Part shown: one piece after another, positions 23,048 through 59,741 of the stretch | Position numbering within the stretch: position 1 is the first letter of the stretch | Layout of the letters: every line of letters begins with the position of its first letter | Source of the DNA: an uncultured Clostridia bacterium | Lineage (GTDB): Bacteria; Bacillota; Clostridia; TANB77; CAG-508 | Length of the DNA: 64,000 nt | Reading direction: 5' to 3' | Assembly (NCBI GenBank): GCA_944391855.1 | Contig: CALXVB010000003.1 | Coordinates: 1-64,000, forward strand | Position numbers and translations under genes: made by a program | The notes under the pieces: model-generated | What the model saw: the letters and a program-made list of their open reading frames with translations, nothing else | Database searches by the model: none | Told to the model about the DNA's origin: nothing

Positions 23048-23052
23048 TAATT

Positions 23053-23079
23053 TCCCCGGTTAGCCCGGGGATTTTTTTA
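23053..23079 (+). terminator. Rho-independent terminator
   Basis: CCCCGG ttagc CCGGGG stem-loop (23054-23070) followed by ATTTTTTT. Confidence 0.75.
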
Positions 23080-23131
23080 CTTATATAAAATTGTGGACAA
23101 ATGGAAGTAGCCCCTTTTGTCCACGATTTTC

Positions 23132-26142: not shown

Positions 26143-26173
26143 TCATTCACTTATACACAAAATATACATTAAA

Positions 26174-26216
26174 TTATCCACAGAGTTTTACACACTGTGG
26201 ATAATTTTTGTTTTTT
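26174..26216 (+). terminator. Rho-independent terminator whose stem is two perfect inverted DnaA-box 9-mers
   Basis: TTATCCACAG (26174-26183) / CTGTGGATAA (26195-26204), 11-nt loop, then TTTTTGTTTTTTG. Confidence 0.7.
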
Positions 26217-55018: not shown

Positions 55019-56082
55019 TATACAACTTCTCCTTTTTTTATATTATATAAATTATATTCTAAATTAGGCAAATCTATTTTTTCAGTTCCTGTTAAAATAA
55101 CTTGAGTATCTTTTATATTATTTAAAAAATTCTTTCTTCTCTCTTCATCTAATTCAGACATAAAATCATCTAATAATAATATTGGATATTCTCCTATTTC
55201 TTCATAGACGACATTAAGTTCTGAAAGTTTTAAAGATAAAATTACTGTTCTATTTTGCCCTTGTGAACCATAAATATTTACTTCTTTACCATTAATATAT
55301 ATCATAAAATCATCTCTATGTACACCCTTTGTAGTAAAACCTTTTATTATATCTAATTTTCTTCTTTCTTTTAATAATTTTAAATAACTTTCTTTGTCTT
55401 CACAATTTGATATATAATCAATTTTTAATTCTTCTTTATTTTCAGTAATTTCTCCATGAATTTTATTAATTTTCTTTGAGATTTTTTCTATAAATTCATT
55501 TCTATAATTAAATATTTTTTCTCCATAATCCGCTAATTTTTCATCCCAGATTTCTAACATTTCTTCTGGTTTATTTTCTTCTTTTATTTGTCTTAAATAA
55601 TTATTTCTTTGTTCAATAGTTTTTAAATACATATTTAAGTTGTATACATAGTTTGGTCTTAGTTGTCCTATCATCATATCTAAAAATCTTCTTCTATTTG
55701 CGGGACCATCTTTTAATATATTTATATCGTCTGGAGTAAATATAACAATATTTATATTTCCCAAAAGTTCACTAAGTTTTTTAATCTTTATACCATTTAA
55801 ATATATTTGCTTTCTATCCCCTATTTCTATCTTAATTTTTCCGTCTCTATCTTTTTTTTGATAATATATTTCAACTATTGAATTACTTTCATTAAATTTT
55901 ATCATTTCTTTTTCTTTAGACGTTCTAAAAGATTTTCCGAAACTACATAAAAATATGGATTCCAAGATATTAGTTTTTCCTTGTGCATTATTTCCATATA
56001 TAATGTTTATATTTTTATTTAAATTTAAATCTAATTGTTCATAATTTCTAAAATTTTGAAGTTTAATTTTCTCTATGTACAT
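55018..56082 (-). CDS. recF: DNA replication and repair protein RecF
   Basis: I place the start at ATG 56082-56080 (MYIEKIKLQNFRNYE...), not the track start 56157. Walker A YGNNAQGKTNILE. Signature and Walker B at ILLLDDFMSELD. TAATG overlap with the upstream ORF. Confidence 0.9.
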   Translation of the reverse strand: MYIEKIKLQNFRNYEQLDLNLNKNINIIYGNNAQGKTNILESIFLCSFGKSFRTSKEKEMIKFNESNSIVEIYYQKKDRDGKIKIEIGDRKQIYLNGIKIKKLSELLGNINIVIFTPDDINILKDGPANRRRFLDMMIGQLRPNYVYNLNMYLKTIEQRNNYLRQIKEENKPEEMLEIWDEKLADYGEKIFNYRNEFIEKISKKINKIHGEITENKEELKIDYISNCEDKESYLKLLKERRKLDIIKGFTTKGVHRDDFMIYINGKEVNIYGSQGQNRTVILSLKLSELNVVYEEIGEYPILLLDDFMSELDEERRKNFLNNIKDTQVILTGTEKIDLPNLEYNLYNIKKGEVV

Positions 56083-56450
56083 TAGGATTCCTTTTCTTTC
56101 TTTTTTATCATTGCATTTATTATTATTTCTGTAATTAATAAAAATACAATAACACATGTAATAATACTTATTATAATATTTGTATAATTTAAAACACTTT
56201 GTGCAATCATATCAGGTTTTCCAAAATTTAAACTCCAAGGAATAATACAAGCCATAATTATTATAGATATTAAAATTAAAATATAAAAAAATATAAAGAT
56301 TCTTTTTTCCTTAATACTTTTAGATTTTTTCTTTATATAATACAATCTTAATAGAAAAACAGACACGATTACAATACAAATAATTAATAATATTAAATTA
56401 TATCTTGGTACATAATATTTCATAACACTTGGAGTTAAATTAAATTCCAT
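56082..56450 (-). CDS. Small 4-TM membrane protein occupying the slot where yaaA (S4-domain protein) normally lies
   Basis: About 122 aa from ATG 56450 (MEFNLTPSV...). Four hydrophobic helices. Its stop overlaps the recF ATG. A perfect DnaA box TGTGGATAA at 56498-56506 lies inside an inverted repeat just upstream. Confidence 0.5.
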   Translation of the reverse strand: MEFNLTPSVMKYYVPRYNLILLIICIVIVSVFLLRLYYIKKKSKSIKEKRIFIFFYILILISIIIMACIIPWSLNFGKPDMIAQSVLNYTNIIISIITCVIVFLLITEIIINAMIKKKEKES

Positions 56451-56565
56451 ATTTATTAACACTTCCTTTTGTTTTTACCACAAGTTATTAACATTTTTGT
56501 GGATAACTTGTTGGTATTTTCATCATTATTTTTAATAATTCATTCTACGTTGGAAAAAGAATTGA

Positions 56566-56790
56566 TTTTTGGCTAGGCGTACTTTATTAAAAATTTATGA
56601 GTCGTACTTTGTGTACGCCCACTTAAATTTTTAATGAAGTGCAAACATTTATTATTCCAACACTTTTTTAATTTTAAAATAATTGATGGTTTGACTAGGC
56701 AAACGAGCAAGAAAACCGGAAGCGTACTTGGTGTACGCTGAGGATTTTCGCATGCGAAGTTTAACAACGTCAAAGCGCAATTATTTTAAA
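56566..56790. repeat. Two tandem ~120-nt GC-enriched structured units between dnaN and the membrane-protein gene (candidate ncRNA/attenuator or protein-binding array)
   Basis: Unit 1: GGCTAGG 56571, CGTAC-TTTGT-GTACG 56603-56617, plus long-range GGCGTAC 56576-56582 / GTACGCC 56613-56619. Unit 2: GACTAGG 56693, GCGTAC-TTGGT-GTACGC 56722-56738, then the 12-bp palindrome TTCGCATGCGAA 56747-56758. Line 56701 counts 48% G+C. Confidence 0.4.
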
Positions 56791-56796
56791 AGGATT

Positions 56797-57915
56797 CTAT
56801 TCTTTCATTCTAATTGGAAGAACCATATAAATATAATCTCCACCCTCTTCTACAGGTCTTATTATACATGGTGATATGCTTGTACCAAAATCAATAAATA
56901 CTTCTTGATCATCTATATTTCTTAATGCATCTAGAAAATATTTAGGATTAAATCCTGCTTCTAAATTTTTTCCTTCTGTTGTAACATACATTTCTTCTTT
57001 TGCATCACCTGTTTGATTTGTACAAGAAATTGTTACTTTTCCTATATCTACATTTACTTTTACAGGATATTTTTTCTCTTTTTCTATACTAGATGATGAA
57101 ATAAGGCTAATTCTTTCAAAACAATTTTGTATTGTATTTTTGTCCACGCGTATTCTTGTTTCCCAATTTTCTGGAATTACACTTGAATAATTCAAAAATT
57201 CTCCATCTAATAATCTAGTAACTATTTTACAATTTTCCATTTCAAATAATGCTTGATTTTTAGCAACTCCTATTTTTATAGGTTCATAAGAATCTATCAT
57301 TATCTTATTTATTTCATTTAAAGTTCTTCCAGGAATTACTGCTGAAAAATCATTTATCTTATTTTGTAAGAATTTACTTTTCCAAGCTAATCTAAAACCA
57401 TCCACTGCAACTACATTTAATTTATTATTTTTTATTTCAAATAAACAACCTGTAAATATTGGTCTATTTTCTTCAGTACTTACTGCAAATATTGTTTTTC
57501 TAATCATATCTTTTAATGAATTTTGTTCCATTTCGATAGAATTTTCTATATTTATTTGTGGAAGTTCTGGAAATTCGTCTGGATTCATTGTTGCAAGTTT
57601 ATATAAAGAACCTTCACATTCTATAACTAATAAATTTTTTTCATCTAAAGTAATTTTTATTTCAGAATCTGGTAATCTTCTAATAATTTCACTAAACATT
57701 ATTGCATTAACTACTGTTGCACCTTGCTCTTTTACTTCACATTTAATTATATATTCTATACCAATTTCTAAATCATATGTTGTAAATTTAACTTCATTAT
57801 CATTTGTTTGAATTAATATTCCTTCCAGTATAGGCATTGTTGTTTTTGTAGCTACCGCTTTTGTTACGGAATTAAGTGCTTTAAGGATATTATCCTTTTC
57901 ACAAATAAGTTTCAT
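56797..57915 (-). CDS. dnaN: DNA polymerase III beta sliding clamp
   Basis: 372 aa. MKLICEKDNILKALNSVTKAVATKTTMPILEGILI... The three-domain length and the position after dnaA both fit. Confidence 0.95.
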   Translation of the reverse strand: MKLICEKDNILKALNSVTKAVATKTTMPILEGILIQTNDNEVKFTTYDLEIGIEYIIKCEVKEQGATVVNAIMFSEIIRRLPDSEIKITLDEKNLLVIECEGSLYKLATMNPDEFPELPQINIENSIEMEQNSLKDMIRKTIFAVSTEENRPIFTGCLFEIKNNKLNVVAVDGFRLAWKSKFLQNKINDFSAVIPGRTLNEINKIMIDSYEPIKIGVAKNQALFEMENCKIVTRLLDGEFLNYSSVIPENWETRIRVDKNTIQNCFERISLISSSSIEKEKKYPVKVNVDIGKVTISCTNQTGDAKEEMYVTTEGKNLEAGFNPKYFLDALRNIDDQEVFIDFGTSISPCIIRPVEEGGDYIYMVLPIRMKE

Positions 57916-58242
57916 TTTGCTCTCTCTCCTTTATAATATAATATAATATTTTTAGTAGTAGTAGTAGTAGGTTATGTGGATAATGTGGAAAACTATGTGG
58001 AAACCTTATCTCCCTAATGAATTTTATGTTGATAATTTAGTGGATAATTAAAAAAGTTATCTACAAAAATTTTTTTCTTATGTGTAAAACTAAAATATCA
58101 ACAGGTTATTAACATACTTTTCACATTATTATGTGGATAGTCTTTCTGGCTGTTCCGTAAGTAAAGATTGATTGTTTTTATATCAAACATTTATTTTTCA
58201 AACGTATTTTTTATAAATTGCATTTAAGTCTTCTATTTGCAA
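57916..58242. other. oriC right... dnaA-dnaN half: DnaA boxes, (TAG)6 DnaA-trio array, A/T-only unwinding tract
   Basis: Boxes: TGTGGATAA 57975-57983 (perfect), TGTGGAAAA 57984-57992, TGTGGAAAC 57996-58004, AGTGGATAA 58039-58047, TTATCTACA 58057-58065, TGTGGATAG 58132-58140. TAG x6 at 57953-57970, 4 nt from the perfect box. 22-nt A/T-only run at 57931-57952. Confidence 0.75.
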
Positions 58243-59583
58243 TTATTTGTCATTAAGCAATATGTTTTTCACACTTTCCACAATTCTTTTTGTACTTACA
58301 TTATTTTGTATTTCTTTTTCTATTTTTGTGCATGCGTGTATTACAGTTGTGTGATCTCTTTTACCAAATCCATCCCCTATCTTAGTTAAAGGTAATTGTG
58401 CAACATTTCTACATAAATACATTGCTATTTGCCTTGGAAAAGTTACGTCATTTGATCTTTTCACACCTTTTAATTCCTCTACTGTCACATTAAAATATTT
58501 TGACACTGTTTCTTGTATTAACTCTAATGATAATACTTTATCCTTTTTAGTAATAACATCATTAATTGATTTTTCTGCCATTTCCATAGTGATTGGAGTA
58601 TTAGTTAATGATGCATTAGCAATTAGTTTATTTAGAATTCCTTCTAGTTCTCTTATGTTTGAATCTATTTTTGTTGCTATATCACTTAGAATTTCGTCAT
58701 CAATTATTATATTATCTAATTGAGCCTTTTTTCTAAGTATTGCTAAACGAGTTTCATAATCTGGATTTGAAATATCTGCAATTAATCCCCATTCAAATCT
58801 AGATTTTAATCTATCTTCTATTAAATTTATATCTTTTGGAGGTTTATCACTTGAAATTATTATTTGTTTTCTATTCTCATGTAATGTGTTGAAAGTGTGG
58901 AAAAACTCCTCTTGAATTCTTTCTTTTCCTGCTATAAATTGAATATCATCTATTAAAAGTACGTCTATATTTCTATATTTATTTCTAAACATTTCACCTT
59001 TACCATCTTTTATAGCGTTAATTAACTGATTGGTAAAAGTCTCAGAAGTAACATATAGAATTTTTGCACTTCTGTTATTTAATAATATTTCATTTGCTAT
59101 AGCTTGCATTAAATGTGTTTTTCCAAGTCCAACACCACCATAAATAAAAAGTGGATTATAAGCTGTCGCTGGTGCTTCTGCTACTGCTAAAGCTGCCGCG
59201 TGTGCAAATCTATTATTGTTTCCAACAACAAAGCTTTCAAAAGTATATTTTGGATTTAATGTAGAATTTGGATAATTATTAACTGTATTTGATAATTGTT
59301 TAGCGACCTGCAATTCTTCTTCTGAAACATCATCTTTTAAAATTACAGTAATTTCACAATTTCTATTAGTTATATAATTAAATGTGTTTTTAAATAAATC
59401 ATGATATCTTGAAAGTATTGATTCTTTTTGAAATGCGTTATTTGCTATTAAAACTATGTTATTGTTTTCAGCGCTTTCAATATCTAAATCTCTTATCCAA
59501 GTCTCATAGGCAATCTTTGTAACTTCGTTCTTTAAAAGTTCTTTTGCTTTTGTTAAAAGTTCATTTAATTCTTCTCTTTGCAT
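58243..59583 (-). CDS. dnaA: Chromosomal replication initiator DnaA
   Basis: 446 aa. Walker A IYGGVGLGKTHLMQAI, LLIDDIQF, and C-terminal DNA-binding domain FGKRDHTTVIHACTKI. Confidence 0.97.
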   Translation of the reverse strand: MQREELNELLTKAKELLKNEVTKIAYETWIRDLDIESAENNNIVLIANNAFQKESILSRYHDLFKNTFNYITNRNCEITVILKDDVSEEELQVAKQLSNTVNNYPNSTLNPKYTFESFVVGNNNRFAHAAALAVAEAPATAYNPLFIYGGVGLGKTHLMQAIANEILLNNRSAKILYVTSETFTNQLINAIKDGKGEMFRNKYRNIDVLLIDDIQFIAGKERIQEEFFHTFNTLHENRKQIIISSDKPPKDINLIEDRLKSRFEWGLIADISNPDYETRLAILRKKAQLDNIIIDDEILSDIATKIDSNIRELEGILNKLIANASLTNTPITMEMAEKSINDVITKKDKVLSLELIQETVSKYFNVTVEELKGVKRSNDVTFPRQIAMYLCRNVAQLPLTKIGDGFGKRDHTTVIHACTKIEKEIQNNVSTKRIVESVKNILLNDK

Positions 59584-59741
59584 TGCTTTTCAGTCCTTCC
59601 AAAATATTATGAGTAAATTTATATATAAAGTGTATAAAAAAGTTATACACATAATTATCCACAATATTGTTATATAATATCAAATAATTTATAAAATAGT
59701 CAATATAAAAAAATATTTATTTAAAAAATGTGGATTTTATA
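59584..59741. other. oriC dnaA-upstream half (DnaA-box cluster)
   Basis: TTATACACA 59643-59651, perfect TTATCCACA 59655-59663, TGTGGATTT 59729-59737. Confidence 0.65.

Follow-up and report, generated by a model that had tools for sequence, protein, structure and literature searches.

The 334-nucleotide (nt) non-coding stretch between dnaN and a small membrane-protein gene upstream of recF in an uncultured Clostridia bacterium (56796-56463, minus strand; all coordinates refer to the 64-kb window analysed here, positions 1 to 64,000 of contig CALXVB010000003.1) carries two tandem, diverged copies of a family of imperfect palindromes of about 123 nt. The family, which is previously undescribed, is dispersed in an AT-rich lineage of uncultured gut Clostridia, and in total we found about 80 copies in about 40 unrelated gene contexts, both among relatives of the organism and in gut and rumen metagenomes. 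We think it reasonably probable that the repeat is a generic intercistronic hairpin of the REP or ERIC kind, carried in messenger RNAs (mRNAs), and no dedicated regulator of recF.

For comparison, we used 80 loci of relatives picked by DnaN (these and the other loci are labelled L plus a number, for example L001), and compared the dnaN-recF spacer in 79 of them. The nearest relatives are metagenome-assembled genomes of uncultured gut Clostridia together with 'Clostridium sp. CAG:567, 273, 508, 245, 571', which we take to belong to the CAG-508/TANB77 group, with genomes presumably of about 1.6 Mb. The first sign of dispersal came from aligning the spacer to the 80 related loci: in some relatives parts of it recurred after dnaN, and in L008 and L014 they turned up a second time, at a distance of about 2.7 kb, in the yidD-yidC interval. 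Twelve copies were aligned, with compensatory changes in 13 of 28 predicted pairs, and the alignment was turned into a covariance model, R1. Matches to R1 follow dnaN in 12 of the 80 relatives, with remnants in about five more, and yidD-yidC copies are present in L008, L014 and L054, at a site where the spacer of about 70 relatives is merely 12-38 nt long. Scanning metagenomes with a single two-motif pattern returned 69 contigs, in 61 of which R1 confirmed a total of 66 copies, five contigs having two copies each. Two pattern matches in viral contigs had no R1 match at E ≤ 0.001 and were discarded as chance.

The genes that flank the copies fall into 38 upstream and 39 downstream clusters with unrelated housekeeping functions, which rules out a riboswitch-like regulator of one common downstream function. 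Example contexts are clpP-clpX, nusA-ylxR, tpiA-gpmI, nrdD-nrdG, secG-rnr, yidD-yidC, obg, ruvB, pnp, rpsK, mutS and rlmN, these names being our own reading of the sequences, a few of them checked against Pfam. We estimate a low copy number of roughly 5-25 per genome. An initial annotation of the locus had reasoned that many identical copies would make the units a generic repeat; copies do occur elsewhere, essentially as that argument anticipated, while being diverged and few rather than many and identical. A known RNA family was also ruled out, as the spacer has no match in Rfam 15 at E ≤ 10, 11 loci with 13 copies have none at E ≤ 1, and over the whole window only three tRNAs reach the gathering score. 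Plasmids, phages and Escherichia coli repeats gave no similarity matches, and a blastn search with the window copies (11-nt words) against 5,426 complete E. coli genomes found none.

Within the window, R1 finds exactly two copies, also with filters switched off. Copy A (56670-56793, minus strand; unit 2 of the initial annotation) is a full-length, 124-nt imperfect hairpin that begins 3 nt past the dnaN stop codon, scoring 123 bits (E ~3e-24) against R1. Its 14-nt outer stem (56672-56685 with 56778-56791) is 100% complementary, its G+C content is 0.38, its sense strand folds at -36.8 kcal/mol, and the L012 copy matches it with 97.5% identity. Copy B (56548-56661, minus strand; the former unit 1), lying 8 nt downstream of copy A, is diverged, 114 nt long and of a second subtype, and lacks about 14 nt, corresponding to the 5' strand of helix 2; it scores 71 bits (E ~3e-12) and folds at -27.9 kcal/mol. 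Its stems pair 56581-56597 with 56624-56640 (17 nt, 94% complementary) and 56549-56567 with 56643-56661, and the region 56472-56644, comprising its 3' part and an adjoining DnaA-box region, is 80.5% identical to L011.

Much of what had been described for these units was borne out. The two are indeed diverged and in tandem at offsets of 120-122 nt, with direct repeats such as TTTGGCTAGGC / TTTGACTAGGC and CGTACTTTGTGTACGC / CGTACTTGGTGTACGC; the CTAGG motifs are present; and the 64 kb contain two instances, and no more, of the CGTAC-N5-GTACG hairpin (56603-56617 and 56723-56737), against a chance expectation of 0.01. The palindrome TTCGCATGCGAA exists at 56747-56758, though it sits within its unit and not after it as had been thought, and the alternative GGCGTAC/GTACGCC pairing can form but is private to copy B, most other copies having GTTTGCC or GTGTGCC there. 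The reported line of 48% G+C corresponds to 48.3% at 56701-56760. As a whole, the spacer has 30.5% G+C, compared to 21.5 ± 7.3% in the other non-coding stretches of the window, whose overall G+C content is 26%, and it folds far more stably than shuffled sequences on both strands (z = -7.2 for minus, -7.35 for plus).

Across the family, the element is about 123 nt long with 26-44% G+C and is predicted to form one long imperfect hairpin of five helices, closed by a 5-6-bp stem with an A-rich loop at the tip and interrupted by conserved internal loops that are asymmetric (5' side, GCGTTGTTAAAC; 3' side, GTTTGCCTAGCC); the conservation of these loops is partly inflated because the search pattern included them. 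The element is non-coding, with stop codons within its 5' arm. Its mean sense-strand folding energy over the copies is -34.5 kcal/mol. In a model alignment of 79 copies, 94.8% of the paired cells are complementary, compared to 84.8% after shuffling and 25-49% with slid partners, and double changes are found at 21 of 28 pairs compared to 9.4 in shuffles, none of 500 shuffles reaching the observed value. A column-wise consensus fold of this alignment lost the outer helices through register shifts, and we used an anchored comparison of each arm with its own and with foreign partners instead. In this alignment-free comparison, 8.96 of 10 outer-arm positions pair with the copy's own arm, compared to 6.85 of 10 with foreign arms, while duplexes of the inner stem reach -7.8 kcal/mol when formed with the own arm and -4.3 kcal/mol when formed with foreign arms. 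Among copies that are at least 90% identical, 18 compensated double changes stand against 36 single disruptions. The helices are thus maintained by compensatory changes.

We then considered where the element lies relative to genes. Seventy copies have distinct flanks, and 51 of them come after a sense open reading frame (ORF) that has 60 codons or more and a stop codon ending somewhere from -6 to +13 nt relative to where the model starts; for 40 the end is within -6 to +2 nt. A mirror control gave nine of 70, with only one long ORF among them, in L140, which is a truly inverted copy. In five copies, the upstream ORF (RuvB and a response regulator, for example) runs 13 nt into the element and terminates at a TAA that belongs to it, and these five ORFs gain an element-encoded tail of 4-5 residues (for example L118:4327, L109:3620 and L139:1983). 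More than 90% of the copies are on the coding strand, and R1 scores them at about 100-133 bits in the forward direction, compared to about 25-57 bits for the reverse strand. Downstream, a distance of 15-200 nt to the following start codon is typical (median about 32 nt), and most copies without an anchoring stop are in apparent 5' leaders, with promoter-like sites upstream in L148 and L129. The element is polar and almost always lies on the coding strand, in a spacer expected to be transcribed, either abutting a stop codon within an operon or in a 5' leader. Consecutive ORF-repeat-ORF-repeat runs occur (L138), and tandem or partial second copies are common in the family, so the tandem arrangement in the window is not special.

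Taken with the conserved fold, this placement suggests how the repeat might act. Both units would be transcribed within the dnaN-(membrane ORF)-recF message, and two long hairpins would fold just 3' of the dnaN stop codon. Most likely they would work there like the co-transcribed repeats of the REP, ERIC, BOX and RUP type, as generic RNA hairpins that either cap or stabilise the 3' end of the upstream cistron or serve as a processing or barrier site that insulates it from the downstream ones. The family would have spread as a non-autonomous repeat that leaves no target duplication. Many repeats in bacteria occupy the 3' ends of genes and are transcribed with them, forming long RNA stem-loops, and some alter mRNA stability (PMC3184786). 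An intrinsic terminator or attenuator was ruled out, as no U-tract follows the hairpin. The flanks past the 3' arm are not T-rich, and no terminator-like site (hairpin plus U-tract) was found in 55900-58300 or near the copies in L148, L129 and L131.

Several observations weigh against a role as an mRNA hairpin. The antisense strand folds better than the sense strand in 65 of 70 copies (-43.5 compared to -34.5 kcal/mol), and the intermediates of pair change carry no excess of wobble pairs: over whole arms, read on the sense strand, there are 160 G·U and 205 A·C, and among near-identical copies seven G·U and ten A·C. Over the model pairs, an excess of 122 compared to 37 favours the sense strand, a figure that is biased because those pairs were derived on that strand. 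Template switching at quasipalindromes can generate compensatory changes at the DNA level without selection on RNA. GC skew does not separate orientation by transcription from orientation by replication, since skew tracks the coding strand and the two are confounded. The conserved motifs are decayed in L163 and some other copies, and many sites are without the element now, so any benefit to the host must be dispensable. Transcription of the copies and any effect on mRNA are, moreover, inferred.

The same observations lend themselves to a different explanation, in which the element is a selfish or neutral DNA palindrome whose single-stranded or cruciform hairpin would be mobilised in trans, for example by a Y1/HUH transposase as for REP/RAYT or IS200/IS605-derived elements or by a serine recombinase. 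Position and orientation would then mark tolerated insertion sites, constraint in a compact genome being lowest right behind a stop codon, with the weaker hairpin placed in the mRNA and on the lagging-strand template; we regard this as a less probable but credible alternative. It accounts for the near-equal G·U and A·C counts, which give no RNA-strand signature, and for the orientation, which is the milder one for mRNAs given an antisense hairpin about 9 kcal/mol more stable. Patchy presence, frequent tandem and partial copies, and the many decayed or truncated ones are equally in line with it, as is the lack of target-site duplications, a trait of HUH and serine-recombinase systems. Set against this, the copies hug the stop codon even where 60-200 nt of free spacer lie downstream. 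Locus L110, the sole case that separates gene direction from replication direction, holds convergent copies (111-234 on the plus and 360-482 on the minus strand) in one intergenic region, and the pair tracks gene direction and not fork direction: one copy abuts the stop of its own gene, and 14 nt upstream of the other, on its own strand, we read the end of a short, contig-cut ORF.

The ends of the element bear on the same question. The outermost 5-8 bp vary with compensation (GGTTG/CAACC, AGTTA/TAACT, AGCTCAC/GTGAGC and CCTAAATT/AATTTAGG), unlike the fixed termini that an enzyme would recognise. Target-site duplications were not detected: of 67 copies searched for flanking direct repeats, 38 had none, 21 had 1 nt and eight had at least 2 nt, and filled and empty yidD-yidC sites likewise revealed no duplication. 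Because the outermost stem bases are not fixed and no target-site duplication is present, the definition of a classical MITE (miniature inverted-repeat transposable element) does not apply, and with no parent insertion sequence seen, this class was ruled out. Among the neighbours of the copies, in about 1.2 Mb of loci and in an unsystematic look at neighbours only, we saw no RAYT, Y1 transposase or other partner, which counts against mobilisation in trans; between the inverted copies in L131 there is likewise no RAYT or transposase, the genes being mutS, rlmN and one for a membrane protein. Three independent copy contexts do adjoin genes for large serine recombinases (Resolvase, Recombinase, Zn_ribbon_recom and DUF4368 domains), a point in favour of mobilisation: the element directly follows the recombinase stop codon in L082, L086, L120, L133 and related loci, and the other genes are L083:5107-7137 and L100:9672-11396. 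One recombinase-bearing mobile element splits a GH94 glycoside hydrolase gene, with the repeat about 45 nt inside its end. The serine recombinase could be a carrier of the repeat, or even the mobilising enzyme.

The tight anchoring to stop codons also raised the question of translation termination. With the base of the hairpin at the stop codon or including it, a ribosome that reaches the stop would have to melt the outer stem, and could stall there or free the pyrimidine-rich 3' arm AUUCUUUUCC to pair with the purine-rich Shine-Dalgarno region of the next gene; either effect would tune how much upstream protein is made relative to downstream protein. Stalling at termination has been reported for REP elements that lie no more than about 15 nt from a stop codon. 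The 40 stops at -6 to +2 nt and the five ORFs ending at the element's TAA count in favour of such a device, as does a subfamily of about ten of the 70 copies in which a conserved tail of 30-35 nt, ..TTTGTnyCTnTAGAAAGGAATGA..ATG, provides the following gene with its Shine-Dalgarno sequence and start codon (..TAGAAAGGAATGA..ATG). This subfamily comprises L107, L108, L110:111-270, L148, L149, L106, L014:1160-1196 and L008, several of its members having an AGGAAT-like motif 2-4 nt 5' of the hairpin. By our reading, the tail GAAAGGAAU could form nine pairs with the 3' arm AUUCUUUUC, a putative pairing. We nonetheless hold a termination device to be improbable, with the tail confined to those ten or so copies, with many copies in 5' leaders that lack an upstream ORF, and with distances in the window of 207 nt (copy A) and 85 nt (copy B) to the next start codon, a DnaA-box hairpin lying between. 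Slightly better, though still doubtful, are the chances that the element is either a new class of portable, strand-specific stop-codon RNA module setting cistron ratios through terminating ribosomes, with a Shine-Dalgarno tail of its own in one subfamily, or, no less without precedent, a palindromic mobile element that targets the ends of coding sequences without target duplication.

The initial annotation had proposed a structured RNA, namely a small RNA or an attenuator of read-through from dnaN into recF, or else a protein-binding array beside oriC. Conserved structure on the transcribed strand is indeed present, the spacer is strongly structured, it lies beside DnaA boxes, and the site after dnaN is the one most often occupied (the 12 of 80 relatives above, in a sample chosen by DnaN). 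What does not hold is the restriction to this locus, with the element in about 40 unrelated contexts, patchily distributed, and no U-tract to support attenuation. Most close relatives, among them L001, the closest, with 99% DnaN identity, do not have it between dnaN and recF. No terminator-like site accompanies it, the spacer matches nothing in Rfam, and most copies start at a stop codon, so that they have no room for a promoter of their own. A locus-specific RNA or array is for these reasons highly improbable, and the generic mRNA hairpin is preferred.

Comparison of the spacers indicated instead that their conserved core is a pair of DnaA boxes and not the repeats. The initial annotation's perfect DnaA box within an inverted repeat was confirmed: the repeat spans 56480-56511, outside the palindromic element, with the perfect box TTATCCACA at 56498-56506 (minus strand) and a decayed partner, TTATTAACA. 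In relatives, the corresponding feature is an inverted pair, TTATCCACA-N4-5-TGTGGATAA, located just upstream of recF or the membrane ORF and often present in several copies (L001-L030). At least one perfect DnaA box is found in 34 of the 79 spacers, at 7.3 per kb compared to 0.46 per kb across the loci. The inverted pair resembles a recF promoter under DnaA control or an additional cluster of DnaA boxes next to oriC, and any locus-specific control of recF more plausibly rests with this pair, downstream of the repeats. The repeats themselves come and go in the spacer: L012 and L163 have the A type only and L011 the B type only; L013, L016 and L017 have A with the 3' end of B; L019 and L152 have an A/B hybrid; and L160, L008, L020 and L002 retain only stubs. 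The tandem pair is probably ancestral within the close clade.

Other DnaA boxes in the window were noted. Clusters at 57975-58140, in the dnaA-dnaN spacer, and at 59643-59663, upstream of dnaA, with a sign change of the GC skew nearby, correspond to the bipartite oriC that is expected in Firmicutes. Two inverted perfect boxes (TTATCCACA-N13-TGTGGATAA) and a one-mismatch box were also seen at 26151-26204, some 30 kb from dnaA, between convergent genes that encode a membrane protein and an ATPase of the ABC-F type. An ordinary intergenic terminator at 23048-23131, in which a T-run and then a second hairpin come after the G+C-rich hairpin CCCCGGTTAGCCCGGGG, accounts for a further G+C peak in the spacers.

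All genes around the spacer are on the minus strand. dnaA (59583-58243) is followed by dnaN (57915-56797), whose TAG stop codon at 56799-56797 abuts copy A; relatives are 85-99% identical in DnaN, and homologous loci have the Pfam domain DNA_pol3_beta. Past the spacer comes the small membrane ORF of 122 amino acids (56450-56082), coupled to recF by a TAATG overlap as the initial annotation had described, its TAA sharing one base with the recF ATG (56082-56080). recF (56082-55018; SMC_N and AAA_23 domains in homologous loci), a RemA-like gene (55018-54770, assigned by Pfam) and gyrB (54733-52820) complete the order. The membrane protein had been credited with four transmembrane segments, whereas Kyte-Doolittle analysis gives three hydrophobic segments, at residues ~11-41, 46-78 and 84-117. 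It had also been thought to replace yaaA, which our comparison contradicts: the 79 spacers of relatives measure 2-615 nt and none has a YaaA-like ORF, their only ORFs of at least 50 amino acids being small membrane ORFs (L019 and L044) and short ORFs within repeats or DnaA-box stretches. A decayed yaaA pseudogene was ruled out, stop codons occurring throughout all three sense frames and relatives having no yaaA here, and a 66-amino-acid ORF across both units was rejected, as its conservation is impossible in relatives without the tandem arrangement. No Pfam family matches the 122-amino-acid protein, and among 5.8 billion proteins its homologues form only four protein clusters, all located between dnaN and recF and abutting recF. 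It is a lineage-restricted orphan. Members of this orphan family occur in the dnaN-recF neighbourhood of the window, L019 and L152-L165, and more distant look-alikes are found in the dnaN-recF spacer of L044 and after recF at L040:6334-6702.

The known repeats nearest to the element are those of the ERIC, REP and MITE types. ERIC/IRU are imperfect palindromes of about 127 bp with low to moderate copy number, which are found in transcribed intergenic regions or at the 3' ends of genes, form a long RNA stem-loop and can affect the stability of upstream mRNA (PMC3184786). Size and palindromic form match, and the copies described here lie between co-directional genes or after promoter-like sites, where they would presumably be transcribed as well. 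ERIC/IRU differ in that they have terminal inverted repeats, come with target duplications and are flanked by TA (PMC3184786), whereas here the outer bases covary and no duplication is seen; in addition, there is no sequence similarity (by blastn against E. coli), more than 90% of our copies share one orientation abutting stops, and the host phylum is different. MITEs such as Correia/NEMIS, RUP and bcr1 are likewise small, non-coding and dispersed in intergenic regions, forming long RNA stem-loops that are often co-transcribed and occurring as tandem and truncated copies (PMC3184786), yet they are defined by conserved terminal inverted repeats of a parent insertion sequence together with target-site duplications, neither of which was found here.

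REP/BIME and REPIN-RAYT sequences resemble the element as extragenic palindromes, often located just past a stop codon in operons, which are co-transcribed, keep their hairpin better than their sequence and show no target duplication. REP sequences differ in being 20-40 nt long, G+C-rich and typically very numerous, with a conserved 5' tetranucleotide, compared to 123 nt, five helices and asymmetric loops in our family, and REPIN-RAYT systems differ in that no RAYT-like gene was seen near any copy here, a comparison limited to neighbours with no genome-wide search. Integron attC sites (123-126 bp in Vibrio cholerae) share the length, the position of an imperfect palindrome right after an ORF, the fixed orientation, the conservation of structure over sequence, the better folding of one strand and runs of alternating ORF and repeat, as in L138. 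They differ in their ends, RYYYAAC...GTTRRRY compared to GTTGAAA...TTTCAAC, and in their cassette context compared to housekeeping flanks, mismatches of core sites and context by which an attC site was ruled out; no integron integrase was seen beside the copies. The repeat fails the defining tests of ERIC, REP and MITE, yet it is of the same general kind.

These results have a practical side, since spacers of AT-rich genomes that are G+C-rich and fold strongly are commonly followed up as leads to new riboswitches and small RNAs; here, such a lead turned out to be a dispersed repeat beside oriC, which averts a false annotation as a recF attenuator or oriC array and leaves the inverted DnaA-box pair upstream of recF as the better candidate for local regulation. 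R1 and its roughly 80 aligned copies provide a seed for a curated family, and they add a structured repeat family from a poorly studied lineage of uncultured gut Clostridia. The family unites an unusual combination of features, namely near-obligate orientation on the coding strand, a hairpin base at the stop codon, heavy compensation, and the lack of terminal repeats and target duplication, and it thereby makes two questions testable: whether intercistronic palindromes serve the mRNA of their host or themselves, and how repeats that leave no duplication move.

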